This document shows, one piece after another, positions 35,983-60,122 of a DNA stretch of 64,000 nucleotides. Position numbers and translations under genes: made by a program. The stretch comes from a virus. Lineage: Duplodnaviria > Heunggongvirae > Uroviricota > Caudoviricetes. The first letter of the stretch is position 1. Every line of letters starts with the position of its first letter. Location of the stretch: IMG/VR virus record IMGVR_UViG_3300025778_000009; one strand, written 5' to 3'. Below the pieces are notes generated by a model, which ran no database searches, was not told the DNA's origin, and saw only the letters and a list, made by a program, of their open reading frames with translations.

Positions 35983-36010
35983 TAGAAGAACCGGGTTAAC
36001 CGGTCGAACT

Positions 36011-36040
36011 AAAAAAGGCCCCGAAAGGGGCCTTTTTCTT
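36011..36040. terminator. bidirectional rho-independent terminator between the convergent gp23 and minus-strand genes
   Basis: aaaaaaGGCCCCgaaaGGGGCCtttttc: a GC-rich 6-bp stem flanked by an A-tract and a T-tract. Confidence 0.8.
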
Positions 36041-36048
36041 TATTTAAA

Positions 36049-36300
36049 TTATTTTTTATAAAGCCAAGTATTAAATATATCTGCCATTTGACATACTTGT
36101 TCACTTGTCATAATAACGCCGTTCACCTCATTGCCTGGTGATGCTACAAGTTCATTAATATGCTTACACCATTCAATAGACTTATCTAAAGCCCATTGAC
36201 GATTCCAAATACGATCTGCTTTCTCGCGACGAGCAATACTTTCTGGTGTTTCTTTTGGAACTTCAAATTCTTCATTCATTCTGTTACTACCTTTCTCCAT
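36049..36300 (-). CDS. hypothetical protein
   Basis: 83-aa ORF that overlaps the upstream minus-strand gene. Confidence 0.4.
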   Translation of the reverse strand: MEKGSNRMNEEFEVPKETPESIARREKADRIWNRQWALDKSIEWCKHINELVASPGNEVNGVIMTSEQVCQMADIFNTWLYKK

Positions 36301-36587
36301 TGACCATCTTTACGTTTTAACCAAAGATCGCCATCATCACCTACTGCCATTGTTACTGCTTTATTAGGATCTGGTTGATGCATTCTCACTAATGATATTT
36401 TATATTGATCAGGATTATCAAATTGTGTCTTCTTCATTTCTGTAGTATCAACTTTAGATGCACCATTAAGAGTTATACTAAAAGCAGTATCTAAAGGTAC
36501 ACCATCTGCTGTTGCTGCTCTTGCTCCTTCAGCAACCAAAGCAAGAGGAGCTACAGGTAGGAATGCAAAGAAACTACGACGATTCAT
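36276..36587 (-). CDS. small secreted protein with a twin-arginine (Tat)-type signal peptide
   Basis: MNRRSFFAFLPVAPLALVAEGARAATA contains an RRxFF motif, a hydrophobic h-region and an AxA cleavage site. Local GC is higher than the surroundings. Confidence 0.5.
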   Translation of the reverse strand: MNRRSFFAFLPVAPLALVAEGARAATADGVPLDTAFSITLNGASKVDTTEMKKTQFDNPDQYKISLVRMHQPDPNKAVTMAVGDDGDLWLKRKDGQWRKVVTE

Positions 36588-37780
36588 TGTTTCACCTCCG
36601 GTAATGGTGCCTTAGGAGCTAATCCAATCAATGCATCAATCATTTGTGGAGTGACTACAATAGGCAATCCATGCTTATCCAAACCTGAACCAAGACCTTC
36701 TTGTACCTTAAGACCAGCAACTGCCTGAAGAATAGGAAGTGCAGAAGCAAGCTTAGTAGCAATATAACGATCGTTAACAGCTTTCTGAACTGATTGATCA
36801 AACTCAAACGTATCTGCCCATCCAATAAAGTCTAGAGTAATACCAACAGAAGCAAAGTATTCTTTTACGCTCTTTTGAATACTTTCCATCATAGGTACCA
36901 TATCTTCATTAGCCTGATCAAATGTACGTTTGCCGATTTCAGCACAAACAAGTGTCTGAACCTTCTTACGGCCTACATCATCCATAACATTAGCCAATGA
37001 ACGCCCATAATAAACAGATGTAAAGATTACTTGTGGATCATTACGATTACCTTGTTGTGGAACTACACCAAAGCGGTAAAGAAACTTAGCCGCATCAACT
37101 TCTGATACAGATGCGCCAATAGAAACACCTGCTGTAATATTCAAACCTTCCTTTGATTGACAAGGAAATGATTGATCTGAAGAAGCAGTTCCACGATTAG
37201 CAGACTTTACCCATTCACGAGAGTAGGGGGTACGATCAACAATAATCAAACGACCTGTAGGTACATAAAAGTCCCAATTCAAAAAGCCGCCTGAATTACT
37301 CAACTTAGCATGAGGAACAATAAAACGCTTTGCAGCAATCTTATTATCACTCAAATATGATTCAGAATCAAACTTGGCTTGAGTATCTTTGTTTGCACCA
37401 ACATCTGGAATCCAGAATGCTGATTCATTAGGAAGAATTGTATATGCTTCTGTCTTGTCAACAGTATCAGCATATGCAAATGCCTGTTGAGGATGTGCAA
37501 TTATCACAAGCAATAACAGCGCAGTAGATGCAGCCAGAAATTCTTGAATTTTATTCTTCCAAATAGCAAACAGAGTAACAAAAAGCACTAGCGTTGAAAT
37601 AAAATACACCGTGTTATTGATTGCAAAAACAAAACTCGTTGTAAGGTAAGTTGTTGTACTGTTATCAAATTGACTGCCTGCAACAGATCCTGTAATCAAA
37701 GTAGCCAAAGGATTAACTATACTAATTATTGTCATATAGACAAAAAAAGTAATAGCAGTTTTAATAATATTGCCGATCAT
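36584..37780 (-). CDS. integral membrane protein with three N-terminal TM helices and a large extracytoplasmic or soluble domain
   Basis: Hydrophobic segments are IIKTAITFFVYMTIISIV, FVFAINNTVYFISTLVLFVTLFAIW and AASTALLLLVIIAHP, followed by a 280-aa polar domain. Confidence 0.5.
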   Translation of the reverse strand: MIGNIIKTAITFFVYMTIISIVNPLATLITGSVAGSQFDNSTTTYLTTSFVFAINNTVYFISTLVLFVTLFAIWKNKIQEFLAASTALLLLVIIAHPQQAFAYADTVDKTEAYTILPNESAFWIPDVGANKDTQAKFDSESYLSDNKIAAKRFIVPHAKLSNSGGFLNWDFYVPTGRLIIVDRTPYSREWVKSANRGTASSDQSFPCQSKEGLNITAGVSIGASVSEVDAAKFLYRFGVVPQQGNRNDPQVIFTSVYYGRSLANVMDDVGRKKVQTLVCAEIGKRTFDQANEDMVPMMESIQKSVKEYFASVGITLDFIGWADTFEFDQSVQKAVNDRYIATKLASALPILQAVAGLKVQEGLGSGLDKHGLPIVVTPQMIDALIGLAPKAPLPEVKQ

Positions 37781-37803
37781 TATAAATGCTCCATTATAAA
37801 GCG

Positions 37804-38589
37804 TTACAGTTTAATTAAATCTTCTAGTTGATATTTCTGTGACATATAGCTAGAAACATTGTCTAAGACTGTTCTTTCTAAATCACCTTCACGTCTAGGA
37901 TATTCATTAACAGTAAAGTCTACATTATTAACTTTTTTAAAAGCTCTAATAATAGCTCTTACTGTATAACCAATACCAGTACCTAAATTTTCCAAACCAT
38001 TAGCAGGTTTGTCTATTGCTTTAATTAAAGCTTCACATATTTCGTTTACATGAACATAATCTCTAATACAAGTACCATCAGGTGTATTATAATCTGTACC
38101 GTAAAGATTAAATTCACCGGTATTTGCAGCTTTAATTAAATTATAAAGAAGACCGTCCGGGTTAGTAGGAGGAAAACCATCAGTTCCTATTACGTTATAA
38201 AATCTAAAAATAGTATAATTAAGATCTTTTTTATTGCAAACTTCTTTTACCACATCTTCACATGCACGCTTTGAAAATGCATATGGATTATTAGGGCTAG
38301 ATGCAGTCCCTGAAGAAGCAAAAATAAAATTATTATAAACAATCTTATTAAGTATATTAATTGTTCCACCAAGATTGTTATTATAATACTTAGAAGGTTC
38401 TTTAACCGATTCGTTAACCCTTACTAGTGCAGCAAGATGAATTACTGTATCTACAGAATAAAAAGTGAGTTTATCATTAATATCACCTTCATACTCTATT
38501 ACTTCATACAAGTCATTATAATGTGAAAGCATCTTTACTAAATGCTGACCAATATAACCCTTACTGCCTGTAATAATAATTTTTTTCAT
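37804..38589 (-). CDS. NAD(P)-dependent sugar epimerase/reductase (extended SDR family, GalE/RmlD-like)
   Basis: The N-terminal Rossmann motif is KIIITGSKGYIGQHL (TGxxGxxG). The catalytic YxxxK is NPYAFSKRACE. Confidence 0.7.
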   Translation of the reverse strand: MKKIIITGSKGYIGQHLVKMLSHYNDLYEVIEYEGDINDKLTFYSVDTVIHLAALVRVNESVKEPSKYYNNNLGGTINILNKIVYNNFIFASSGTASSPNNPYAFSKRACEDVVKEVCNKKDLNYTIFRFYNVIGTDGFPPTNPDGLLYNLIKAANTGEFNLYGTDYNTPDGTCIRDYVHVNEICEALIKAIDKPANGLENLGTGIGYTVRAIIRAFKKVNNVDFTVNEYPRREGDLERTVLDNVSSYMSQKYQLEDLIKL

Positions 38590-38593
38590 TTAG

Positions 38594-38788
38594 TTAACGG
38601 ATAACTTTCAAGTGATCAAAAACATAACCTGATGCTTTCAAGAATGTTTCAAATTGGCTTAACACAACATGAAGATTAGCTTCTGTAGCATCAAATGATA
38701 TTTCTACTGTCTGGTCAGGATGATCATCCATTCCGCTGTTGACCATATCCATACGGAATGTGTATGTTACACTAAAATCGTCATTCAT
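38594..38788 (-). CDS. hypothetical protein
   Basis: 64-aa ORF in the minus-strand operon. Confidence 0.35.
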   Translation of the reverse strand: MNDDFSVTYTFRMDMVNSGMDDHPDQTVEISFDATEANLHVVLSQFETFLKASGYVFDHLKVIR

Positions 38789-39198
38789 AATATAAACTCC
38801 AAATGATCTTCTACTACCTTAAAACGCACTGTTTGAGGATTGCCATTAATCTTAGTATAGTCTCTACCCCCATCAATAGCAACTTTATCGGCCGCACGAT
38901 AATCATGACGGTACCGACTATATACGACTTTCTCACCTAAAACAATACCGGTATACTCTACTTCTGTAGCTGAGATGCCATTAGCAATCATTAGATCACC
39001 ATCCATATCAAAATACAAACCAAAATAGTTAGAACCTTCTGGATGAGCTTTTTCTGTGTAGAAAATAGCACATGGAAAGTTGCCCCAGTCTCCACTCTTA
39101 AGTCTCAAACACGAATCAAAGATATAAGTAGCATTATATTTCTCTTCTATTTTTGCTATAGAATCTGGTCTAAGAAATGATGAAGTGTCTATCCACAT
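38785..39198 (-). CDS. hypothetical protein
   Basis: 137-aa ORF overlapping its neighbours by 4 nt. Confidence 0.4.
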   Translation of the reverse strand: MWIDTSSFLRPDSIAKIEEKYNATYIFDSCLRLKSGDWGNFPCAIFYTEKAHPEGSNYFGLYFDMDGDLMIANGISATEVEYTGIVLGEKVVYSRYRHDYRAADKVAIDGGRDYTKINGNPQTVRFKVVEDHLEFIL

Positions 39199-39504
39199 TT
39201 ATTTTTTCCTATAGTACATTGTATAAATTTTTTCTAACCCAACTTTGTTCGGATGCTTATGAATCCATTGTCCTGTATATGGGCTAAACTCTTTTTGGAA
39301 GTACAAATCCATTATATCGTTTTCTGTAGAAATGGCAATATTTATTTTAGATGCAAGTTCATCAAACTCAGCATCAGTCATAATAGAATCTGAATGTACT
39401 TCATAAGCATAAGCTGCTACTGATAATTTAATTCTATTTCGTCTTTCTATTTCAACCGGTGACCCCCAATTAGACTTAACTTCCATAAAGTCTTCTATAC
39501 TCAA
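39199..39504 (-). CDS. hypothetical protein
   Basis: 101-aa ORF. Confidence 0.4.
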   Translation of the reverse strand: MSIEDFMEVKSNWGSPVEIERRNRIKLSVAAYAYEVHSDSIMTDAEFDELASKINIAISTENDIMDLYFQKEFSPYTGQWIHKHPNKVGLEKIYTMYYRKK

Positions 39505-39860
39505 GACATACCTACTATATGCTTACAGTTACGACGGAACATAAAAGCCTGACAAGTACAAGACTTATAATTCTCTCCTACAGTTACAATATAAGTATCA
39601 CCTTTAGAACCTGTAACTGAAAAAGTGCGCTCTTTTACTGCTTCTGTTTTAAAAGAAGTAGCAGCACCATCCATTTCTATAATATCTTCTTTAGGTATGA
39701 TACGAAACTTAAACTTAGTATTTTCGCTTGTAGTAAGAGCAATAGCATCATACTCTACCCATTTAGGAGTAGCAACAAGCTCTCCTTCATAGGTATAGTA
39801 ATTTTGTCCCATTGTACGGTGAGAGTTTTTAACTGTAACTTTCATTGCTTTGACACACAA
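39501..39860 (-). CDS. SWIM-type zinc-finger protein
   Basis: The C-terminal SCTCQAFMFRRNCKHIVGM matches the CxCx(n)CxH SWIM signature. Confidence 0.55.
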   Translation of the reverse strand: MCVKAMKVTVKNSHRTMGQNYYTYEGELVATPKWVEYDAIALTTSENTKFKFRIIPKEDIIEMDGAATSFKTEAVKERTFSVTGSKGDTYIVTVGENYKSCTCQAFMFRRNCKHIVGMS

Positions 39861-40027
39861 GTAATATAAGGATGTAAGGAAGCAAACTCTTTTGCGATCA
39901 TTTTAGATGATACTTCACAATGAGCTTTATCTTTTACTGGTGTCTCAATAGTTACTTTAGATTTCTCTACACCAGTAAAAGATAAAGATACAATCATAAC
40001 TAGAACATAAGACATATTAACGATCAA
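39842..40027 (-). CDS. small hypothetical protein
   Basis: 61-aa ORF with a hydrophobic N-terminus. Confidence 0.3.
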   Translation of the reverse strand: MIVNMSYVLVMIVSLSFTGVEKSKVTIETPVKDKAHCEVSSKMIAKEFASLHPYITCVSKQ

Positions 40028-40202
40028 TTGCTAAATCATGATAGTAGTCAGCTGCATCTCCAAGATACTCTTGAAGGCGGTTATCAATTTCTTCTGAATT
40101 ACTACAAACTATATCATAGGCTTCAGACCAATCCATTAATGGATTTTTATCCATAAGTTCCTCGACCATCTTGTCAAGAATTTGAACCCATAGTTCTTTC
40201 AT
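40017..40202 (-). CDS. small acidic hypothetical protein
   Basis: 61-aa ORF. Confidence 0.3.
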   Translation of the reverse strand: MKELWVQILDKMVEELMDKNPLMDWSEAYDIVCSNSEEIDNRLQEYLGDAADYYHDLAIDR

Positions 40203-40205
40203 ATA

Positions 40206-40535
40206 TTACATGCTCCAGTAAGTTTCTTTCGAAGGATCACAAGCAAGAGGAGTAGAAGCAAGAATCGTAACATCCTTGCCGGTCATAAGGCTCTTAACAA
40301 CCTTAGTACGAGTTTCTTCCGTATGCTGAGCCTTTGCTTTCTTAAGATGCAGCTTAGCATTACCAATCTTCAAACCCAACTTATGGCAGAGTTCAGAAAG
40401 AATAACTTCGTCGGTATCACCCTTACGAAGCGAACCCATGATAAAATTACGAACTTCATTCCGTTTATGACGCATTTGAGTATCTCCATTTCTCATCTTA
40501 TAATTAATCATAGCGGTTTTAGGAAAATAATGCAA
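40206..40535 (-). CDS. hypothetical basic protein
   Basis: 109-aa Lys/Arg-rich ORF. Confidence 0.4.
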   Translation of the reverse strand: MHYFPKTAMINYKMRNGDTQMRHKRNEVRNFIMGSLRKGDTDEVILSELCHKLGLKIGNAKLHLKKAKAQHTEETRTKVVKSLMTGKDVTILASTPLACDPSKETYWSM

Positions 40536-40545
40536 CTGTTATTTT

Positions 40546-40917
40546 TTACCCTACCTTAACATAGCAAACTTCTTCGATATCAATAAAATCTTCCTTCACT
40601 TCATATTCATAGTTATCAGTACCGTCACCTAAAAACATTTTTTCACTATATCTCAATTCTTCCATAAACTTTTTATCAATTTTTTCTCCTACAAACTCAA
40701 CAGATACGTAACCAGAATCTTCAAACCGATACCAACCTTTTTTAGTAACTACTTCATTAATAGTATCAACATCACCACCAAAGAATTCTTCTGCCGACAT
40801 ACTACCTAATTCGAATTTATCCATAAATTCTTTTGCTAATTTGTTCATTTTCATCTCTCCATTTATCATATTATTATAATCGTATAAATCTGATATAAAA
40901 TCTACTGTTTTTTTCAT
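40546..40917 (-). CDS. hypothetical acidic protein, first gene of the minus-strand operon
   Basis: 123-aa ORF whose start abuts the inverted-repeat region. Confidence 0.4.
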   Translation of the reverse strand: MKKTVDFISDLYDYNNMINGEMKMNKLAKEFMDKFELGSMSAEEFFGGDVDTINEVVTKKGWYRFEDSGYVSVEFVGEKIDKKFMEELRYSEKMFLGDGTDNYEYEVKEDFIDIEEVCYVKVG

Positions 40918-40925
40918 AAAAACGC

Positions 40926-41012
40926 CATTGAAATCATTGAGTTTTTTTAGATCTAGCTAACTTATTGAAATCATTATACTTTTTATATCAAAAAAACTCA
41001 ATGATTTCAATG
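40926..41012. promoter_or_regulatory. 23-bp perfect inverted repeat with a 41-bp spacer that contains a third partial copy, in the divergent intergenic region
   Basis: The arm cattgaaatcattgagttttttt at 40926..40948 has its exact reverse complement aaaaaaactcaatgatttcaatg at 40990..41012. The spacer contains attgaaatcatt at 40964..40975 and an agatct palindrome. Confidence 0.6.
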
Positions 41013-41083
41013 TCGTTTTTTTATAGATTTTATTATAAAAACATGCTATATTTAATTATAAGATAAAATAAAGGAGATAAAAA

Positions 41084-41284
41084 ATGACAAAACGTATTTT
41101 CGCCACTTTTGACTTCGAGCACGAAACAGTTCTCGGCGACCTTTTAGACCTTTTATTCTGCTATCAAGGTAAAATTGAATCTTTTTTTCCTCGTGAAGAT
41201 GTATGGGTTTTGACTCTATCTTTTTCAGCAGAAAAAGAATTAAAAAGCTTTATAGAAGATTTAGGTCGTGATCCGATTTACTAG
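41084..41284 (+). CDS. small hypothetical protein (early-region type)
   Basis: 66-aa ORF with AAAGGAGAT upstream. Confidence 0.4.
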   Translation: MTKRIFATFDFEHETVLGDLLDLLFCYQGKIESFFPREDVWVLTLSFSAEKELKSFIEDLGRDPIY

Positions 41285-41339
41285 TTGCTATTATTTTCAA
41301 AATACCGTATATTAGTATTATGAGAAATGGAGAAGTGAA

Positions 41340-41555
41340 ATGAATGTCAATGAAGCAATATCATTAGCTAATCAGCTTGAACTTTTAATTACTAATTCTC
41401 TCACATACAATATGTCTCGAGAACAGCTCATACAAGGGATAGGATTTGTATCTAAGGAGCTACGTGAGTATGCGGATAAGCTAGATTCTGATATGTATAA
41501 CGAATTAGGTCATGCATACGAGAAGTATGATGATGCAATGGTTGTTGGAGGTTAA
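41340..41555 (+). CDS. small hypothetical protein
   Basis: 71-aa ORF with a GGAGAAG RBS. Confidence 0.4.
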   Translation: MNVNEAISLANQLELLITNSLTYNMSREQLIQGIGFVSKELREYADKLDSDMYNELGHAYEKYDDAMVVGG

Positions 41556-41961
41556 TATGATCCCTGTTACTTTTCCTGCTGGTCGTTATCTCATTGGTGA
41601 TCTTTGCTACCGTGATGAATATATGTGGGATGCTATGCTTAATACACCTATGGGTAAAAAAGGCAAAGTAGAGAATTCCTATGAAGGTACTGTTCATGAT
41701 TTTTGTATTTTAAGGACTAAGTGGGGTGATGGTGGTTATGATGATCAATATGGTAACGAATATTTTGTAGATTCTGGTACAATTGGAATTATGAGCTGGA
41801 ATCAAGATAAAAAAGATAGCGGTACTGGTCGCACTTTTAATTTTGCCGGTCCGTTTCAAGTATATGAAGAAAACGGTAAGTTGGTTTTTGGTAGTATCAT
41901 CATTAATACTGATCCAGTATATGAAGAAAAAGAAGAATATGAACTAGAGGAGACATTCTAA
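41512..41961 (+). CDS. hypothetical protein
   Basis: 149-aa ORF. The true start is probably the internal Met MIPVTFPAG, which follows GGAGG. Confidence 0.45.
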   Translation: MHTRSMMMQWLLEVNMIPVTFPAGRYLIGDLCYRDEYMWDAMLNTPMGKKGKVENSYEGTVHDFCILRTKWGDGGYDDQYGNEYFVDSGTIGIMSWNQDKKDSGTGRTFNFAGPFQVYEENGKLVFGSIIINTDPVYEEKEEYELEETF

Positions 41962-41963
41962 TA

Positions 41964-42143
41964 TGGATAAGCTATTAATTTTTTTAGGTGCTTTGGTTAT
42001 CATTATCATCGGACCGTTTCTTTCAATCTGGGCATTGGATACTCTTTTCCCAGTGCTTAATATCCCCTATACACTTGAAACATGGTTTGCTGCTGCAATT
42101 TTGTCAGCTGGGGTATATACTAGACCTAATAAGAAAGGTTGAT
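41964..42143 (+). CDS. small membrane protein (59 aa)
   Basis: MDKLLIFLGALVIIIIGPFLSIWALDTLFPVLNIPYTLETWFAAAILSAGVYTRPNKKG: two hydrophobic segments. It falls below the ORF-track length cutoff. Confidence 0.3.
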
Positions 42144-42324
42144 TATGTTTAACTTACAGGCTTGCTATTCTATCAATGATATACTATTCTCAGTATCATT
42201 GTTTACAATGATTTTAACAGTCATTGTTACATTTACGTATTTGATGGTTACGTTGATTAAAGATGCAGTGTTTGAAGTACAAGACATGAAATCTAAGAAA
42301 GATAGAGCCATAAATACTCAATGA
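42139..42324 (+). CDS. small membrane protein
   Basis: 61-aa hydrophobic ORF. Confidence 0.3.
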   Translation: MIMFNLQACYSINDILFSVSLFTMILTVIVTFTYLMVTLIKDAVFEVQDMKSKKDRAINTQ

Positions 42325-42334
42325 GGAGTAGTAT

Positions 42335-45068: not shown

Positions 45069-45139
45069 TTAGTTGAATTATTTTAATAAATCTGTTATTA
45101 TAATAGTTATATTTACATACATTTATTTTAGGAATTATT

Positions 45140-45697
45140 ATGGCAGATCCCAAGAAGAATAAGCATTATATTGATAATAAAAGATTTTATACTGAGATTT
45201 TAAAGCATAAAGCCGACGTAGAAAAAGCAAAAGCAGATGGTTTAGATGAACCAAGAATACCACCTTATATAGGTGAGTGCCTCTTTAAAATTGCAACAAG
45301 ACTATCATTAAAACCAAATTTTGTTAGTTATACTTTCAGAGAAGAAATGATATCTGATGGATTAGAAAATTGTATAAATTATTTTCACAATTTTAATCCA
45401 GAAAAATCTGACAATCCATTTGCCTATTTCACACAGATTATTTGGTTTGCTTTTATTAGACGTATTGATAAAGAAAAAAAACATCTTTATATTAAACAAA
45501 AGACATTAGAAAATTTTTATTTTGAAGGTATGTTGGCTGAACAAGGTATTGGTGAAGACGACAGGACCGTAACTGTTAATTTAGATAACGAGTATATGAA
45601 GGGCTTAGTTGAATCTTATGATAAGAAGCAGCTAGAAAAACAAAAGAAAAATAAAGCCCGTAAGTTAGGAGTGGAGAAATTCTATGAATCAGAATAG
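45140..45697 (+). CDS. gp55: late-transcription sigma factor
   Basis: Exactly 185 aa, as in T4 gp55. HYIDNKRFYTEIL matches T4 NYVNNKELLQAII. NPFAYFTQIIWFAFIRRIDKEKK matches T4 [23 protein letters not shown]. Confidence 0.85.
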   Translation: MADPKKNKHYIDNKRFYTEILKHKADVEKAKADGLDEPRIPPYIGECLFKIATRLSLKPNFVSYTFREEMISDGLENCINYFHNFNPEKSDNPFAYFTQIIWFAFIRRIDKEKKHLYIKQKTLENFYFEGMLAEQGIGEDDRTVTVNLDNEYMKGLVESYDKKQLEKQKKNKARKLGVEKFYESE

Positions 45698-55745: not shown

Positions 55746-56533
55746 AAATAGCACATGAAGCTCCTATAAGTATATTTCCTACAGTTCAGCTTATGACCGA
55801 TTATGATTATGCGCTGGTACATTTATTTGAATCTAATTTAATGTATTACCGCATGTTCAAGGATGCAGTGGTAAGCGGACGTGAAGTAATTCTTGATAAT
55901 TCTATTTTTGAATTAGGTACATCATTTGATGGTGATACTTATTTTAATTGGATTGAAAAGTTACAACCTACATGGTACATTATACCAGATGTACTAGAAG
56001 ATAAACAGGGCACTTTGGATAAAATGGATAATTGGTTATCTAAGTATAAAGTCTCTTCAAATATTAAATCTATTGGTGTTATTCAAGGTAAGACTTTTGA
56101 TGAGCTTGCTGAATGTTATTTAAAGATTGCTCCACGGGTAGATAAAATTGCAATCTCTTTTGATTACTCATACTATATAGAATCAACAAAAGATATTAAT
56201 CCTACTAGCAAATACGCTGCATGGATGTTTGGTCGTCAAGCATTGTTAGAGGATTTACTTGCTGATGGTATTATAGATACTAACAAGCCCCATCATTTAT
56301 TAGGTTGCGCTTTACCACAAGAATTCTCTGCCTATAAAGACTATAAGTGGATTGACTCTGTTGATACTTCTAATCCTGTAGTACACGGGTTAAATGGTAT
56401 ACATTATACTTCTAATGGCTTAGATAGTAAAATTTCTACTAAGCTTATTGAGTATATGAACGAACAAGTAACCGATATACAACTTGGTATGGTTAAATAT
56501 AATATTGAAAAATTTAGAGAGTTTTGTAATTGA
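55742..56533 (+). CDS. dpdA: DpdA-like (tRNA-guanine transglycosylase fold) protein lacking the zinc subdomain; candidate DNA 7-deazaguanine transglycosylase
   Basis: NKPHHLLGCALPQEF...IDSVDTSNPVVHGLNG parallels the TGT core KPRYLMGVGKPEDL...DMFDCVMPTRNARNG. ILDNSIFELG lies at the position of the DSGGFQ substrate pocket. The gene sits inside the preQ gene cluster. Confidence 0.55.
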   Translation: MKIAHEAPISIFPTVQLMTDYDYALVHLFESNLMYYRMFKDAVVSGREVILDNSIFELGTSFDGDTYFNWIEKLQPTWYIIPDVLEDKQGTLDKMDNWLSKYKVSSNIKSIGVIQGKTFDELAECYLKIAPRVDKIAISFDYSYYIESTKDINPTSKYAAWMFGRQALLEDLLADGIIDTNKPHHLLGCALPQEFSAYKDYKWIDSVDTSNPVVHGLNGIHYTSNGLDSKISTKLIEYMNEQVTDIQLGMVKYNIEKFREFCN

Positions 56534-57066
56534 GACCGTGGATAGCTCTTTTTAGTCAAACTGGAAGTGAACTCAAAAGTATTTGTGATCACTTTAACGT
56601 ATGGCCTACAAACATATATACTAACAATTATAATGAAGATCAATGGGCTCATAATATACCTGTTGATAAAGTAACCATTATGAGCCATGATGCTATTCAT
56701 AATGGATTGCGCTTTACTAAGCAAAATTGCTTTGTAACCTTGCATGGATATCTTCGTATTATACCTGCTGACGTTTGTAAAATGCATGACATTTACAACG
56801 GTCATCCTGCACCTATACATCTTTATCCAGAACTTAAAGGTAAAGACCCTCAAGAGCGTATTTGGGAAGGTAATGCCAGGTATCATACATTAGGTTCAGT
56901 TATTCACAGAGTAACAGAAGGTGTTGATGAAGGCGAAATAGTTTATAGTGTTATTGAAGATAATACTTGCATTAGTAAGGAAGAGCTTTATAATACACTT
57001 AAGGATTGCTCATATAATTCGTGGATTGAATTTTTAGAAAGTAAGATAGATGTCAGCAAAAGATAA
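56530..57066 (+). CDS. PurN/Fmt-like formyltransferase (minimal N-terminal catalytic domain)
   Basis: RPWIALFSQTGSELKSI matches PurN RIAVLISGSGSNLQAI. FVTLHGYLRIIPADVCKMHDIYNGHPAPIHLYPELKG matches PurN VVLAGYMRIL...NIHPSLLPKYPG, with catalytic N, H and D. HRVTEGVDEGEIV matches PurN HFVTDELDGGPVI. Confidence 0.7.
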   Translation: MRPWIALFSQTGSELKSICDHFNVWPTNIYTNNYNEDQWAHNIPVDKVTIMSHDAIHNGLRFTKQNCFVTLHGYLRIIPADVCKMHDIYNGHPAPIHLYPELKGKDPQERIWEGNARYHTLGSVIHRVTEGVDEGEIVYSVIEDNTCISKEELYNTLKDCSYNSWIEFLESKIDVSKR

Positions 57067-57304
57067 TAAAGATGCAATTAGACCTAATCATTATAAAGGT
57101 AAAGGTAAATACGAATGCATCGATGTAATTGAAGATCTCTGCAATACTTCTACTAATGATCGATTTACTGACTACAATAGGTTTCAAGCTTTTAAATATG
57201 TCTGGCGTGCAGGTAATAAAGATCCTGTAATTCAGGATCTTAAGAAAGCTATTACGTTTTTAGAATTTGCAATTGCATATGAGGAAAAGAAAAATGTCAA
57301 GTAA
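57050..57304 (+). CDS. small conserved phage protein (DUF3310-like)
   Basis: RPNHYKGKGKYECIDVIEDL resembles the P-x-HY...G-x-E-x-ID-x-I signature recalled for DUF3310. Confidence 0.4.
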   Translation: MSAKDNKDAIRPNHYKGKGKYECIDVIEDLCNTSTNDRFTDYNRFQAFKYVWRAGNKDPVIQDLKKAITFLEFAIAYEEKKNVK

Positions 57305-58235
57305 GATTGAAGATATTGCATCCGTACACTTAGGAAAGGCTGGAGATGGATCAGTTGTTAAGCCTTATATTACTCCCGATTTTATTGATCGTAGCCTTCT
57401 TGTGGGTATTCCTCGCATGCTTAATCGCACTGCTTACAATATTGATGAATCTGATCTACCTTTCGTTGGTTTTGATACTTGGAACTGTTATGAGTTTTCT
57501 ACCCTTACTGATAATGGGTTTCCTGTTTGTGGTGTTATTAGGATTAGTTATCCGTCTGATTCGCCTAATATTGTAGAGTCAAAGTCACTTAAACTCTATA
57601 TGAACTCATTTAACATGACTCACTGTGGTAAGACCGTTGAGGATGTTATTGCAAAAGCAGAAGAAGTTATTATTCAAGATCTTGCACCTGCATTAGGTAT
57701 TGAGTATGATGATCTCTCAGTATCATTTGTTAATGAGTTTTCAGATACAGTAACACCAATCAAGAATTATTTTGCTCTTCTTGAAACTACAGTAGATGTA
57801 GAAAATATTTCGTTTGACCATTTTAACGAAGATCCAGATATCTTACAAATTGTAGATTATACTGGTATGAATCAAAATGGTATGCAAGTACGTTCTGCAG
57901 TTCTTCGTTCTAACTGCCGTGTTACTAATCAGCCAGACTGGGGTGATGTATATATTTCATTCAGAGGTGAAAAAGGTGTAACACCTGAATCACTACTACA
58001 GTATATTGTTTCTATGCGTAAAGAAAATCACTTTCATGAAGAGATTTGTGAGTGCATTTATAAGCGACTTCATGATATGCTACAACCAGAAGATCTTTTT
58101 GTAGCATGTCTGTATACACGTCGTGGTGGTATTGATATTAATCCAGCACGCGCTTCTAGCTATGAGCTATTAATGACTTATGCAGATAATCTAAGCAAGA
58201 CTCATAAATTGAACAATAAGACATTGAGGCAGTAA
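57294..58235 (+). CDS. queF: NADPH-dependent 7-cyano-7-deazaguanine reductase, bimodular (YqcD-type) QueF
   Basis: The first half carries the QueF motif VESKSLKLYMNSFN. The second half carries the catalytic Cys context NCRVTNQPDWGDVYISF and HFHEE. The ATG at 57294 follows GAGGAAAAG. The tracked ORF starts at 57267. Confidence 0.75.
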   Translation: MSSKIEDIASVHLGKAGDGSVVKPYITPDFIDRSLLVGIPRMLNRTAYNIDESDLPFVGFDTWNCYEFSTLTDNGFPVCGVIRISYPSDSPNIVESKSLKLYMNSFNMTHCGKTVEDVIAKAEEVIIQDLAPALGIEYDDLSVSFVNEFSDTVTPIKNYFALLETTVDVENISFDHFNEDPDILQIVDYTGMNQNGMQVRSAVLRSNCRVTNQPDWGDVYISFRGEKGVTPESLLQYIVSMRKENHFHEEICECIYKRLHDMLQPEDLFVACLYTRRGGIDINPARASSYELLMTYADNLSKTHKLNNKTLRQ

Positions 58236-58981
58236 TGAACTTACAAGAAGCATTAGCAGCATTACCTGATACAGATGATAATGTAGTATCCGTTCTTTCT
58301 GGTGGAATGGATTCTACTATCATGACTTACATCCTTGTTGCAAAGTATGGCAAGGAAAGAGTTTTTGCTTTATCATATAACTATGGTCAAAAGCAAAAGA
58401 AAGAACTTGAGATGGCTGCCAAGACATGTGAATATCTTGGCATTGCTCATAAAGTATTGGATCTTGGAATTCTTGGTGATATTGTAAAGGATGTCAGTGC
58501 AAATATCGGCGGCACTGACGTGGCTATGCCAACCATCAAAGATGTTCTTGGAGATCCACAACCTAAAACTTATGTACCATTCCGCAATATGATCTTAAAT
58601 GCATTAGCATTTTCATTTGCTGAATCTAATAAAGCTTCTCATGTATTTACCGGTTTACAAGTACATGACGAGTATGGCTACTGGGATACTTCTCAGAAAT
58701 TTGTTGATAATATGAATGCAGTTGCTGGTCTTAATCGCACCCACAAGGTTAAGCTTGAAGCGCCTTTTAGTCAATTAGCAAAGTGGGAAGAGATCAAGAT
58801 TGCAGAGGAGCTTGGTAATGTTAAACTTGAATACACTCTTACTTGTTATGATCCTGATGATGATGGAAGGTCATGTGGTGTTTGCCCCAGCTGTTCGGAG
58901 CGTATACAGAATTTTATTAGAGCTAATGTTCGTGATCCTATTGCTTACGTACACGGTATCGATTGGGATAGATTTATATAA
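58235..58981 (+). CDS. queC: 7-cyano-7-deazaguanine synthase
   Basis: VVSVLSGGMDSTIM is the PP-loop. The C-terminal zinc ligands are CYDPDDDGRSCGVCPSCSERI, a QueC-type CxxC...C cluster. Confidence 0.8.
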   Translation: MNLQEALAALPDTDDNVVSVLSGGMDSTIMTYILVAKYGKERVFALSYNYGQKQKKELEMAAKTCEYLGIAHKVLDLGILGDIVKDVSANIGGTDVAMPTIKDVLGDPQPKTYVPFRNMILNALAFSFAESNKASHVFTGLQVHDEYGYWDTSQKFVDNMNAVAGLNRTHKVKLEAPFSQLAKWEEIKIAEELGNVKLEYTLTCYDPDDDGRSCGVCPSCSERIQNFIRANVRDPIAYVHGIDWDRFI

Positions 58982-59610
58982 TGTGCAGTATCATTGGTTC
59001 TTTCAGTAAAGATAAAATTGCTGACCTCGTAAAGCTAAACCTTTATAGAGGTCAGCATTCATATTCTTATTCTTACTATAACCTTGAAGATAATACAATC
59101 CAAGTAAACAGAGGCTTAGGTGAGATACCTCTTGATGCTATTAACATACCCGATAGGTGCTATTGTATTGCTCATATGCAGGCGCCTACAACAGAAAATA
59201 AAGATATAAATTCTGTTCACCCTGCTTATAGTGGTAATGCTTTACTATGGCATAACGGTATAGTAAAGGCAAAATGGATTAACGAACGTAAGCAACAATA
59301 TGAAGGTGACCGTTATAATACTTGGGATACTTATTTGATTTTAAAGCAGTATGCTGAGGAAGGTCACCTAAATAATATTGATGGTACTTTTTCCTGTGTG
59401 TACTACAGTCCTATGGAAGGATTGCAGTTGTTTCGCAATCTCATTTCACCATTGTTCATAGATGATGATCATAATATCTCATCTACAAAATTTGAAAATT
59501 CTCAACCATTACCTGCAAATATTATCTGGAGTTTTAATCCAGGTGAAGGTATTATAAGAGATGGTATTTTTAATACAGTTGAAAACCCTTATTATGGATT
59601 AGATTTATGA
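58981..59610 (+). CDS. class-II (Ntn, AsnB-type) glutamine amidotransferase domain protein; effectively a split Gat-QueC in reversed order
   Basis: The N-terminus MCSIIGSF provides the catalytic Cys2 after Met removal. YRGQHSYS, HNGIVKAKW and GTFSCVYYS parallel AsnB MCSIFGVF, HRGPDWSG, NGEIYN and GMFAFALYD. The start ATG overlaps the queC stop as TAATG. Confidence 0.65.
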   Translation: MCSIIGSFSKDKIADLVKLNLYRGQHSYSYSYYNLEDNTIQVNRGLGEIPLDAINIPDRCYCIAHMQAPTTENKDINSVHPAYSGNALLWHNGIVKAKWINERKQQYEGDRYNTWDTYLILKQYAEEGHLNNIDGTFSCVYYSPMEGLQLFRNLISPLFIDDDHNISSTKFENSQPLPANIIWSFNPGEGIIRDGIFNTVENPYYGLDL

Positions 59611-60122
59611 GTATGTTACATATTGCTTCAAAGAAAACCAAATCAAGTTTAACCAATATGTTGGATGAAGATATCCAACCTAATGCCGTTGATCTTCGTC
59701 TTGATAAAATTTTTATTATTCATCCTGCTCTCTTTACTCTTGGTACTGATGATACTGGTAAAGAAATCAAAAAGCATAGAGGATCAGTAGAGATATATCC
59801 TGATAGTGAAGGTTACTTTTATTTGCATCCAGGTAATGCATACGAAGTTATTATGGAAAATGTTATTGAGGTAGGTGATGGTGAAGCAGGTTGGGTTATT
59901 ACCAGAAGTACTCTTAATCGTAATGGTTTGTATATTACTTCCGGTTTATATGACTCTGGCTATCATGGAGTTATGGCTGGTGCTCTACATGTAAAAAATG
60001 GTCCAGCAAAAATTAAAAAAGGTAGCCGTATTGGCCAGTTTTTACTTTTTAAGTCTGAGTCACTAAAGAAGTATGATGGTGATTATGGTCTCGGTAAAGA
60101 GCATGATAAAAAATATACTTGA
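59607..60122 (+). CDS. dUTPase / dCTP deaminase-family protein (T4 gp56-sized, 171 aa)
   Basis: NAVDLRLDKIFII...ITSGLYDSGYHGVMAGAL contains the GxxDxGYxG motif of the all-beta dUTPase/Dcd superfamily. Confidence 0.6.
   Translation: MSMLHIASKKTKSSLTNMLDEDIQPNAVDLRLDKIFIIHPALFTLGTDDTGKEIKKHRGSVEIYPDSEGYFYLHPGNAYEVIMENVIEVGDGEAGWVITRSTLNRNGLYITSGLYDSGYHGVMAGALHVKNGPAKIKKGSRIGQFLLFKSESLKKYDGDYGLGKEHDKKYT

Follow-up and report, generated by a model that had tools for sequence, protein, structure and literature searches.

A two-armed hyperplastic region between g23 and g3 of a large uncultured T4-like phage, with a repeated box upstream of its putative divergent promoters

Hyperplastic or accessory islands are already known in T4-like phages, and T4 itself encodes Imm and Sp, which are early membrane and periplasmic exclusion proteins. 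Stand-alone NAD+-dependent-ligase domains Ia (Nlig-Ia), moreover, occur in 81 phages and have a predicted link to NAD+-depleting defence, in that they may sense NAD+ or protect it from NADase effectors (PMC9503650). The locus that we compare with these systems lies in a 64-kb stretch of phage DNA (the window); the assembled contig of this phage measures 229 kb, and an alphaproteobacterium is its probable host. A block of minus-strand genes in this window belongs to an accessory (hyperplastic) region between g23 and g3 of this large uncultured T4-like phage. Considering all evidence, we assign a probability of about 0.72 to the reading that we are dealing with a two-arm hyperplastic region that has early divergent promoters, undergoes gene turnover and carries envelope, NAD+ and takeover cargo.

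The block consists of 12 tightly packed minus-strand ORFs, which either overlap or lie at most 23 nt apart. Their coordinates in the ORF list (36049–40917) are exactly those of the first-pass annotation, which saw them as interrupting a plus-strand T4 core. The rest of the 64-kb window is plus-strand, including all remaining ORFs of at least 110 aa. In a public assembly of the same phage 11 of the 12 ORFs are called as genes, most of them show dN/dS values of 0.09–0.48 when compared to relatives, and homologues are present in many contigs. Thus, the ORFs are real genes and not chance occurrences. The flanks are formed by gp22 and gp23 on one side and by gp3, UvsY, UvsW, gp47 and gp46 on the other. 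The block would represent the leftward arm of the hyperplastic region, flanked by two late genes, g23 for the head and g3 for the tail. The whole island spans 35983–42334 and has two divergent arms; it reaches 42334 because five small plus-strand ORFs make up the second one. With these ORFs the variable region extends past the limit drawn in the first-pass annotation. The arms would diverge from a control region of 100–170 bp, and the GC content is heterogeneous across the island (0.27–0.41).

Table 1. Coordinates of the island features in the window
Feature	Position	Strand	ORF (aa)	Description
Terminator	36012..36037	both		bidirectional intrinsic terminator AAAAAGGCCCCGAAAGGGGCCTTTTT; serves g23 (+) and leftward operon (-)
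o1	36049..36300	-	83	persistent gene; 76 aa in public gene call
o2	36276..36587	-	103	twin-arginine (Tat-type) signal peptide MNRRSFFAFLPVAPLALVAEGARA|A, by motif
o3	36584..37780	-	398	SPFH/Band-7 membrane scaffold (Pfam Band_7, structure)
o4	37804..38589	-	261	compact GalE-like extended-SDR nucleotide-sugar 4-epimerase (Pfam, PHROG, alignment)
o5	38594..38788	-	64	acidic, pI 4.4; phrog_935, 1.9e-5
o6	38785..39198	-	137	DUF7695 / phrog_12504 family; persistent gene
o7	39199..39504	-	101	stand-alone NAD+-dependent-ligase domain Ia (Nlig-Ia; Pfam PF22745)
o8	39501..39860	-	119	114-119 aa; N-terminal beta-rich domain, C-terminal SWIM zinc finger CxCx8CxH (Pfam)
o9	39842..40027	-	61	57-61 aa; hydrophobic N-terminus (ORF list)
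o10	40017..40202	-	61	very acidic, pI 4.1
o11	40206..40475	-	109	89 aa with start at M21; ORF open to 40535
o11 early-type promoter	40507..40535	-		TTGCAT-17 nt-TATGAT; then leader GAGAAATGGAGA, ATG at 40475
o12	40546..40917	-	123	open ORF, acidic, pI 4.4; public call also 123 aa
o12 early-type promoter	40876..40904	-		TAGATT-17 nt-GATTAT; reversed box A 22 nt upstream
Control region	40918..41020			box copies 40927+, 40964+ (degenerate), 40997-
p1 early-type promoter	41024..41052	+		TAGATT-17 nt-TATATT; reversed box C 12 nt upstream
Rightward arm	41084..42324	+		p1-p5
p1		+	66	rightward arm
p2		+	71	rightward arm
p2 promoter	41285-41313	+		TTGCTA-17-TATATT; within rightward arm
p3		+	134-149	phrog_20074; rightward arm
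p4		+	59	hydrophobic; rightward arm
p5		+	61	hydrophobic; rightward arm
g3 late promoter	42309..42316	+		CATAAATA; right end of island

The bidirectional terminator proposed earlier is present. Its 11-bp stem contains six GC pairs and is closed by a GAAA loop; A- and T-runs flank it on either side, with A5 preceding the hairpin and a T-run following it. Rfam searches at this position gave sub-threshold matches only. CATAAATA, the promoter variant found before g3, also precedes gp22. Scanning the 64-kb window for TATAAATA revealed six sites, each of them plus-strand and outside the island.

The inverted repeat, which had been described as a 23-bp element (40926..41012) bounding the island, turned out to be different in both size and position. 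Its arms are 31 nt long (40918–40948 and 40990–41020) and 97% complementary, and it is found mid-island, where it consists of the boxes upstream of two putative divergent promoters. The box is ATTGAAATCATTGAG followed by T6, and the outer two copies build the inverted repeat. A scan for the box yielded nine matches versus 2.0 expected, the three exact copies being confined to the control region. This region is conserved in the relative L001; the −10 elements within the box region are not. The exact 18-mer of the box occurs in 65 IMG/VR stretches, and box arrays were found at about 30 loci, almost always at divergent gene junctions. Of 105 distinct box copies, 11 stand exactly 11 nt from the −35 element, with random controls being scattered, and reversed boxes lie either 12 nt (10 cases) or 22–24 nt upstream of it. 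Moreover, the o12-type architecture of box and promoter recurs with identical spacing in L117, L119, L110 and L096. The boxes thus appear to stand at fixed distances upstream of sigma70-like −35 hexamers, in this locus those of the two divergent promoters.

Judged from the sequence, the inverted repeat is the common control region of two outward-facing early promoters of the sigma70 type, upstream of which the box copies would sit at helical-phase-locked distances. Conserved cassettes of promoter and Shine-Dalgarno (SD) sequence precede o12, o11, p1 and p2, and similar ones are found in other phages; the 12-mer of the o11 leader has an exact second copy at 41322 and a third, with a single mismatch, at 40856. 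Host RNA polymerase would read both arms early, antisense to or independent of the NATAAATA late promoters. In the leftward unit there would be an additional internal promoter before o11, and transcription would stop at the bidirectional terminator of g23. It is the promoter type, the strand and the absence of late promoters that suggest the early timing of both arms.

The island is not universally conserved, since the gap between g23 and g3 is at most 150 bp in 37 of 62 relatives. Inserts of more than 1 kb were found in 11 relatives and measure up to 4.2 kb, compared to 6.35 kb in the window, which has the largest. Every one of the close relatives carries an island here, with contents that differ gene by gene, in line with the accessory and variable nature proposed in the first-pass annotation. 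Gene content varies among L001, L002, L003, L117, L119, L132, L147, L153, L173 and L174, L003 having an RNA ligase and a kinase at the site. The genes o1, o2, o6 and o8 are persistent, and o3, o4, o5, o7 and o9–o12 are variable; the rightward arm is missing in most relatives and varies among close ones. Nucleotide identity to L001 is 93–97% in the island centre versus 79–86% in core genes, which indicates recent exchange; dS is 0.03–0.18 for o9–o12, p1 and p3, compared to 0.58–0.74 for core genes. An extra ORF of L001 is located between direct repeats TTAATATGTCTTAT, and the arms are swapped in L147, L173 and L174. Together, these comparisons show that genes are gained, lost, arm-swapped and traded between lineages, one or a few at once. 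Part of this turnover takes place at the conserved promoter and SD cassettes and at short microhomologies of the junctions. Within the sub-clade an island at the g23–g3 site is old, and the term "moron" does not fit this T4-type hyperplastic region.

Protein families suggest roles for part of the cargo. No match to o1 was found in Pfam, PHROG or NCBIfam; it has a conserved motif, WN.QWALDKSIEWCKH, and homologues in L001, L002, L117, L173 and L174 (dN/dS 0.43–0.48). The Tat signal reported for o2 is borne out by its N-terminus, as MNRRxxF is invariant in five of five homologues that are overall about 48% identical. Its mature part of about 79 aa is predicted to be periplasmic. With about 30 cluster representatives of 95–105 aa, the o2 family is a small one, and both members that were retrieved start with MNRR; dN/dS of o2 is 0.19. 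The presumed three-TM protein o3 is indeed a membrane protein according to Pfam and structure, but its kind is SPFH/Band-7: TM helices at the N-terminus are followed by an SPFH domain and a long helix at the C-terminus. The protein scores 28.5 bits with Pfam Band_7 (cut-off 23.6), and its AF2 model (pLDDT 76) retrieves stomatin, prohibitin, HflK/C and QmcA in Foldseek (probability 1.0, E=1e-8). The positive-inside rule, applied by hand, predicts that the SPFH domain faces the periplasm. Among 976 homologues, those with 51–61% identity are in MAGs of Acetobacteraceae, Rhodospirillales and Rhizobiales, and one homologue is in a bacterial chromosomal context; o3 thus appears to be of host (alphaproteobacterial) type. 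L173 and L174 have an SPFH gene in the same place; L001, L002 and L153 lack it. The SDR epimerase o4 was correctly recognized (Pfam Epimerase 5.7e-31; phrog_540 1e-43). Compared to E. coli GalE, it retains GxxGxxG, the catalytic Ser region, YxxxK, DGTxxRDY and PRREGDL. Its activity is uncertain, however, because it has internal and terminal deletions and falls below the equivalog cut-off of TIGR01179 GalE (171.8 versus 262.3 bits). The GC content of o4 is 0.29–0.30 versus 0.39–0.41 for o3. Together, o2, o3 and o4 may be an envelope-directed set that probably alters or stabilises the envelope of the infected cell, superinfection exclusion being one option.

Further along the leftward arm, o5 has a homologue with 60% identity in L173. 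Alignment of 10 homologues of o6 shows the conserved motifs AAIFYTE.AHP.GSNYF, YSRYRHDYR and DGGRDY, and a precomputed DUF7695 match exists for the L173 homologue. The Nlig-Ia domain of o7, which the first-pass annotation had left unnamed, scores 43.2 bits (6.4e-11) and is predicted to bind NAD+. The protein has 318 homologues of 90–120 aa, shares 66–67% identity with proteins from phages DSS3_VP1 and DSS3_PM1 and contains the family-invariant residues Y32, Y34, E35, D44 and D48; in L001 it is truncated to a 56-aa ORF. A sequence search with the family profile did not reach LigA structures. Translation of o7 may be coupled to that of the SWIM protein o8, and a plausible role of o7 is to sense NAD+ or to shield it from NAD+-depleting defence. 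The zinc finger of o8 was rightly named: its Pfam SWIM score exceeds the gathering cut-off (21.8 versus 19.6 bits, 1.3e-4) and its Cys/His pattern is invariant in 12 homologues. Found in L001, L002, L003, L006, L117, L119, L132, L147, L153, L173, L174 and L088, o8 is the most persistent gene of the island. Within o9 lies a perfect 19-nt inverted repeat (39925–39943 and 39969–39987); the protein is kept in L174 (79%) and L132 (52%), the hairpin only in the window and L001. For o10, dN/dS versus L001 is 0.20 and the L174 homologue is on the opposite arm. The o11 protein, which repeatedly adjoins box arrays, consists of three helices and a beta hairpin and is basic (pI 9.8 when computed on the 109-aa open ORF). 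Its most likely start is M21, and that of o12 is probably an internal Met around 40848, giving about 100 aa, since the upstream codons (codons 1–22 in o12) are conserved promoter/SD cassette. Several of these small acidic or basic proteins probably serve host takeover.

Other readings of this cargo have to be considered. Most ORFs might counter bacterial immune systems, as the first-pass annotation had envisaged. The predicted function of solo Nlig-Ia, the RNA ligase and P-loop kinase that L003 has at this site, which as a pair are classic for RNA-repair counter-defence, the several small and very acidic ORFs (pI 4.1–4.5) and the fast turnover of island content are all consistent with this. 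However, such a dedicated anti-defence island is unlikely: a search of the island ORFs with PADLOC and known families gave no matches to any characterised anti-defence family or defence-related model, leaving o7 as the one gene with a published predicted link, and SWIM, DUF7695, o1 and o2 are conserved across long divergence rather than quickly replaced. Moreover, o2 and the two largest genes, o3 and o4, are of an envelope or metabolic type and point to the cell envelope instead. A narrower version of our preferred reading, which we hold tentatively and would not bet on, makes o1–o4 a superinfection-exclusion or envelope-remodelling module, in which an SPFH cage facing the periplasm, a periplasmic protein exported by Tat and an epimerase acting on UDP-hexose would remodel the inner membrane, the periplasm or the glycans of the surface, so that later phages are kept out or the infected cell is stabilised. 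It is adjacency that suggests this idea: o3 and o2 are neighbours in the window, L173 and L174, with a start/stop overlap in the window and L173. The SPFH fold and TM helices of o3, the conserved Tat signal, the GalE catalytic motifs and the analogy to Imm and Sp agree with it. However, although o2 and the SPFH gene co-occur in three lineages, o2 is found without an SPFH gene in L002, L117, L119 and L132, and L087, L088 and bacteria have the SPFH gene and no o2 homologue. Of the large island genes the epimerase is the one shared least widely; L173 and L174, both of which have the SPFH gene, lack it. An NfeD-type partner was not found, and the topology of o3 is hand-drawn.

Two further alternatives concern the box array and the origin of the block. 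Rather than a transcription element, the array might be a replication origin or recombination site, like T4 oriF at uvsY, around which the island accumulated. Arrays are indeed iteron-like (2–5 copies, spaced by 26–39 nt), set in AT-rich sequence and, in several relatives, located 0.6–2 kb upstream of uvsY; their surroundings are unusually alike between lineages, with arms swapped around them. T4 origins are promoters too, so the two roles are not exclusive. Nevertheless, we regard an origin as improbable, since single boxes lie at the fixed 11-nt distance from the −35 at many other promoters, including one at 54677 of the window, and there are several boxes per genome. Boxes are also found in a phage with an HK97-type portal, L174 has none at the same junction, and an initiator gene is not evident. 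That the block is a recent mobile-element insertion, with terminator and inverted repeat as its ends, is very improbable, even though its strand is opposite to that of all neighbouring genes, its GC content is heterogeneous and it is missing in most distant relatives. The island lacks integrase, transposase and homing endonuclease genes, both arms of the inverted repeat are at one end of the block rather than one at each, the two-arm island occurs throughout a sub-clade in which gp23 identity ranges from about 67% to 89%, and relatives differ gene by gene, not all-or-none.

As a two-arm hyperplastic region, the locus is thus of an ordinary kind for T4-like phages. Its promoter/SD cassettes resemble PeSL elements, yet are without the stem-loop that defines these, and its modest novelty is a single regulatory motif, the box.

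The window derives from a T4-like myophage that has not been cultured. Its sequence is also present on an ENA contig of 229,087 nt (ERZ27271955 k141_23248), of which the analysis covered about 40 kb (roughly window 8.1-69 kb), and an identical o7 protein (o1-o12 being the minus-strand ORFs that form the leftward arm of the island) is shared by 11 contigs of several samples. In the major capsid protein, identity is 66% to Stenotrophomonas phage DLP6 and 58-59% to the Melnitz and Mosig phages. A search of GenBank phage DNA returned only short matches, at the o7 and o4 motifs, and a cultured close relative is therefore absent. Across the 64 kb all ORFs of at least 110 aa lie on the plus strand, except between 36 and 41 kb. 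The twelve minus-strand ORFs found there have exactly the coordinates reported in the first-pass annotation and are packed with overlaps or with gaps of at most 23 nt. The island is flanked by core genes, namely those for gp20-gp23 including the scaffold protein upstream, and for gp3, UvsY, UvsW, gp47 and gp46 downstream. The hairpin behind g23 is flanked by an A-run and, on its opposite side, by a T-run, and can thus end transcription of g23 as well as of the minus-strand block. An Rfam scan gave only sub-threshold matches, at this hairpin, and a tRNA scan detected no tRNA.

Features of the island and of its surroundings in the window
Feature	Position	Strand	Sequence or remark
Giant ORF	1747-8370		single ORF of 2207 aa behind a late promoter
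T4-type late promoters	1531, 16867, 24865, 27609, 29260, 43243	+	TATAAATA
Island between g23 and g3	35983-42334		
Bidirectional terminator hairpin	36012-36037		GC-rich
ORFs o1-o12	36049-40917	-	leftward arm
Inverted repeat inside o9	39925-39987		19 nt, perfect; 25-nt loop
o11 start, probable	40475	-	M21
o12 start, probable	near 40848	-	
Inverted repeat arms	40918-40948 / 40990-41020		31 nt; 97% complementarity
Box A	40927	+	ATTGAAATCATTGAG, then T-run
Box, degenerate copy	40964	+	
Box C	40997	-	ATTGAAATCATTGAG, then T-run
o12 promoter		-	TAGATT-17-GATTAT; 22 nt from reversed box A
p1 promoter		+	TAGATT-17-TATATT; 12 nt from reversed box C
ORFs p1-p5	41084-42324	+	rightward arm
T4-type late promoter of g3	42309	+	CATAAATA; right end of the variable region
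Early promoter cassette outside the island	45072-45140		
Peptide deformylase	50879-51358		
7-deazaguanine gene set	51595-60122		
Early promoter cassette outside the island	54677-54760		at 54677, degenerate box exactly 11 nt before the -35

The island ORFs are genuine genes. Homologues were found in other contigs for all twelve, and comparison with relatives gives dN/dS values of 0.09-0.48 for o1, o2, o8, o10, o11, o12 and the plus-strand ORFs. For o9 the substitutions are too few for dN/dS, and its protein is 79% and 52% identical in the related contigs L174 and L132, respectively. The perfect inverted repeat inside o9 (18 nt and 94% in the related contig L001) might have been an RNA element or have spoken against coding; both readings were rejected, as L174 and L132 keep the protein without the hairpin. 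Two starts probably lie further downstream than annotated, that of o11 being placed at its M21 because eight of 14 homologues are 89 aa long. The codons upstream of the revised o11 and o12 starts overlap a conserved promoter plus Shine-Dalgarno cassette.

We fetched 80 loci through gp23, of which 62 reach g3. The spacing between g23 and g3 is at most 150 bp in 37 of these 62 loci, and 11 carry inserts of more than 1 kb. Across the 62 relatives the gap measures 79-4243 bp, compared to 6352 bp in the window; the variable region therefore takes in p1-p5 and ends at the late promoter of g3. All relatives with a gp23 identity of roughly 67-89% have an island here, of the same two-arm layout but with differing content. 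The gene order is o1, o2, o6 and the SWIM gene (o8 in the window) in L117, L119 and L132; o1, o2, the SPFH gene (o3), o6, SWIM and o9 in L174; o1, an o2-like gene, SPFH, o5, o6 and SWIM in L173; and o1, o2, two other ORFs, o6, the Nlig-Ia gene (o7) and SWIM in L002. In L153 the o2-o5 block is missing and o6 directly adjoins the junction of the o2 end and o1, in L001 a deletion runs from within o2 to within o7, and L003 has an RNA ligase, a P-loop kinase and SWIM. The window holds the fullest version, and its GalE-like gene (o4) is the least shared large gene. Conservation across the phage group is not universal, as relatives differ gene by gene, and the proposal of an accessory island therefore stands. 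The region is nevertheless old, with a persistent core of o1, o2, o6, o8 and p5.

Between the window and L001, core genes show dS values of 0.58-0.74 and 79-86% nucleotide identity, compared to 0.03-0.18 and 93-97% for o9-o12, p1 and p3. The island centre has therefore moved between lineages recently. The additional ORFs of L001 fall within this cassette-rich, recently exchanged segment, and one of them, of 78 aa, is bordered by a direct repeat, TTAATATGTCTTAT, made up of a stop codon plus the start and first codons of the gene. This start-codon microhomology is found at the sole indel junction that could be resolved; the large indels in o2-o7 are without a cassette, and alignment of the epimerase insertion with L173 revealed no clear repeat flanking the junctions. 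Genes also change arms: o11 lies across the divergent junction in L147 and L173, as does o10 in L174, and in L147 SWIM plus Nlig-Ia have moved to the opposite arm as well.

The two arms diverge from a control region in which a 15-nt box, followed by a T-run, is present in three copies. An exact 18-mer from the inverted repeat occurs in 65 IMG/VR stretches, and arrays of two to five boxes within 150 nt were seen at about 30 loci, almost always at a junction with minus-strand genes to the left and plus-strand genes to the right. The consensus of 61 distinct copies is TAAC..c-ATTGAAATCATTGAG-TTTTTT. The distance from the end of a forward box to a sigma70-like -35 hexamer is exactly 11 nt in 11 of 105 distinct copies, compared to scattered single matches for random positions. 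For reversed boxes it is 12 nt (10 cases) or 22-24 nt (10 cases). The first-pass annotation had taken the inverted repeat for a boundary of the island, which is not borne out, since these spacings mark upstream elements of divergent promoters. From the box distances of the p1 and o12 promoters it follows that the repeat is the upstream-element pair of two divergent promoters. Two candidate sigma70 promoters inside the box region (TTGAGT-17-TATAAT and TTGAAA-17-TATAAA) had been considered and were dropped in favour of the flanking cassette promoters, their -10 elements being unconserved in L001.

Cassettes of a promoter plus leader, GTTGCA/T-N17-TAT..T followed by GAGAAATGGAGA-N7-8-ATG, precede o11 and p2, and similar ones are found at 45072 and 54702 of the window and at many other loci. 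All six late promoters of the form TATAAATA lie on the plus strand and none in the island, with 15.7 expected by chance on both strands. Five of the six precede late genes; variants serve gp3 and gp22 (CATAAATA) and gp23 (AATAAATA). From these promoter sequences we infer that the island would be transcribed early, by the host RNA polymerase.

Carriers of the box are many uncultured phages, mostly T4-like, but at least one has an HK97-type portal. This locus, L098 (IMGVR_UViG_3300022707_002962), has a portal of family PF04860, is not T4-like and contains four boxes, every one of them ahead of a TTGAC-type -35 hexamer. T4-like phages are therefore not the only carriers, which hints at a host factor as reader of the box. 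Other candidates are the alpha subunit of RNA polymerase and a phage protein, for instance of the o11 type. The o11 gene repeatedly adjoins box arrays, and its model consists of three helices plus a hairpin; a fold search with it was non-specific, and boxes are more widespread than o11. At the equivalent divergent junction of L174 (6580-6760) there is neither a box nor an o11 homologue, and another inverted repeat, GCCCTTGA...TCAAGGGC, is present. A more novel reading, to which we assign a probability of about 0.3, is that ATTGAAATCATTGAG plus T6 is an undescribed, sequence-specific upstream promoter element, whose reader would be either a host factor or a small winged-helix-like phage protein of the o11 type. 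It would drive divergent early transcription and, through its inverted and direct repeats, might also be the pivot of arm swapping and cassette exchange in this island.

Three products, o2, o3 and o4, are of the envelope or sugar-modifying type. The N-terminus of o2 reads MNRRSFF, AFLPVAPLALVAEG and ARA/A, comprising the (S/T)RRxFLK-like motif, the moderately hydrophobic h-region and the c-region (basic residue and AxA cleavage site) of a canonical Tat signal, and export is predicted. MNRR..F is invariant in five o2 homologues and is also present in the two family members retrieved from a representative library. The top matches in that library, giant repeat proteins, were discarded as low-complexity artefacts; the true family is small.

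The o3 protein is, on its profile match and structural model, an SPFH protein. It scores 28.5 bits against Pfam PF01145 (cut-off 23.6), and Foldseek matches its AF2 model to stomatin, prohibitin, HflK/C and QmcA with a probability of 1.0. The model has helices at residues 2-36, 42-78 and 86-94, providing an anchor, and a long C-terminal helix at 329-370, from which oligomerisation into a cage is putative. By our own reading of the positive-inside rule, the SPFH domain is predicted to face the periplasm. Among T4-like phages, 44RR, Aeh1 and RB43 are on record as having SPFH genes (Nolan et al., 2006, PMC1524935); like these, o3 is an accessory gene of a T4-like genome. With HflK/C, QmcA and YqiK it shares the SPFH fold, the membrane anchor and the long C-terminal helix. 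However, it differs from bacterial SPFH proteins in having two to three N-terminal transmembrane helices instead of one and in lacking an NfeD- or HflC-type partner, such as many bacterial operons have: no match to an NfeD or Band_7 partner was found among the neighbouring genes in the window and the relatives examined, and in the one bacterial neighbourhood examined (L090/L091) the homologue stands alone. The family comprises almost 1000 unnamed proteins from large phages and bacteria, and the closest relatives of o3 are unnamed alphaproteobacterial and phage proteins. Its nearest genomic homologues (51-61% identity) are in Acetobacteraceae, Rhodospirillales and Rhizobiales MAGs, which suggests an alphaproteobacterial donor or host; the nearest homologue in a cultured phage, gp65 of Bacillus phage G, is only 32% identical. 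In a large phage (L087, 7701-10165), an SPFH homologue adjoins an NAD+ salvage pair, NadR-like (NMNAT plus Nudix) and NAMPT. SPFH and SWIM homologues lie two genes apart on a 493-kb jumbo-phage contig (L088, 6001-8315), echoing their proximity in the island.

Aligned to 5gy7/E. coli GalE, o4 keeps the Rossmann GxxGxxG as well as the catalytic and substrate-binding motifs (catalytic Ser, YxxxK, DGTxxRDY and PRREGDL). It is, however, shorter than GalE (261 aa compared to about 338 aa), lacking stretches of about 25 and 15 residues and ending in a reduced C-terminus, and its TIGR01179 score of 171.8 bits is below the equivalog cut-off of 262.3.

The o7 protein is a stand-alone Nlig-Ia domain (PF22745, 43.2 bits, cut-off 27). 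Among the best 120 of its 318 homologues, lengths are 86-134 aa, mostly 90-120 aa; one, P0001, is 99% identical to o7, and a record look-up for it found nothing. Y34, E35, D44 and D48 are invariant in the family, F47 is conserved in the consensus, and the spacing matches LigA by eye. In E. coli LigA the NMN-binding residues of domain Ia are Y22, H23, D32, Y35 and D36, to which the o7 residues, mapped by eye, may correspond. An HMM of the o7 family run against PDB sequences gave no LigA match. In several lineages the start of o7 overlaps the stop of o8, a SWIM protein (PF04434, 21.8 bits, cut-off 19.6) whose CxCx8CxH is invariant in 12 homologues. Solo Nlig-Ia proteins form a class known from 81 phages, for which sensing or shielding of NAD+ has been proposed (Iyer, Burroughs, Anantharaman and Aravind, 2022, PMC9503650). 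Like these, o7 is a stand-alone PF22745 protein of about 100 aa that retains the YxY(H/E)-x8-DxE(Y/F)D motif; unlike them, it shows translational coupling with a SWIM zinc-finger protein, which recurs in at least five lineages.

Of the other products, o6 is a DUF7695 protein, and the remaining ones are small acidic or basic proteins without a family match. Pfam, PHROGs, NCBIfam and PADLOC gave no anti-defence name (Acr, Ocr/ArdA, Tad, Gad, NARP and similar) for any island ORF, and in PADLOC and NCBIfam nothing besides the epimerase was informative. No anti-defence function was shown by the tests here, and the nearest support comes from o7 and from the RNA-repair genes of L003. The latter (5648-7398; gp23 76% identical) encode an RNA ligase-like protein of 407 aa and a P-loop kinase of 173 aa, both identified by motifs alone, at the site behind g23, where they adjoin a SWIM homologue and a box array.

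Elsewhere in the window, a set of genes for 7-deazaguanine (preQ0/queuosine-precursor) synthesis comprises a QueE-like radical-SAM protein, PTPS/QueD, FMN reductase, GTP cyclohydrolase I, a formyltransferase-like protein, a QueF-like protein, QueC and dCTP deaminase, which suggests modification of the phage DNA. The 2207-aa ORF, for which no Pfam match is on record, presumably encodes a giant fibre or structural protein.

The island is real and correctly located; as a region it is of an ordinary kind, and its regulatory motif is modestly novel. As a clean and well-sampled example, it illustrates how a hyperplastic region (HPR) of a T4-like phage is assembled and how its content turns over. The phage lineage is uncultured and probably alphaproteobacterial, and the island combines a small core of persistent genes with nested gains of single genes, swaps between the arms and a centre that was recently exchanged between lineages. 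The inverted repeat is to be read as promoter-upstream elements rather than as an island boundary, and the box with its exact spacing rules is a testable motif by which early promoters of this phage group could be located. The recurrent pair of SWIM and solo Nlig-Ia is a candidate for functional tests, possibly of NAD+-linked counter-defence, and the pair of SPFH and Tat proteins is another, with envelope remodelling or superinfection exclusion as possible roles.

Both the HPRs of T4-like phages and the PeSL (promoter-early stem-loop) cassettes within them have been described previously (Arbiol et al., 2010, PMC2839356; Comeau et al., 2014, PMC4122927). The region is an HPR of the T4 type: it lies between conserved core blocks, its content varies among relatives and its exchange exceeds that of the core genome. 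As in known HPRs, the site is between core modules, most ORFs are small and without annotated function, and close relatives differ by insertion, deletion and replacement of single genes. Moreover, sigma70-type promoter plus Shine-Dalgarno cassettes (N17) are repeated before unrelated genes and may be associated with indels, the promoter, Shine-Dalgarno and start arrangement of PeSLs being found before o12, o11, p1 and p2 and at 45072 and 54702. However, the short GC stem-loop of PeSLs is absent upstream of the o11 and p2 promoters, and upstream of the o12 and p1 promoters there is a box array, not a terminator hairpin. Many island-type cassettes carry instead the conserved 15-nt box with its T-tract, whose distance to the -35 is constant and which is often arrayed and in both orientations. 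The cassettes behave like PeSL elements, but with a phase-locked box in place of the stem-loop. Bacterial UP elements and class I activator sites offer the closest parallel for the box itself, since box plus T6 spans roughly -61 to -41 and its helical phase with the -35 is kept (11/12 nt or 22-24 nt). Unlike these, the box is a sequence-specific 15-mer that is exact across phages whose core proteins are about 65% identical, and its arrays hold up to five copies.
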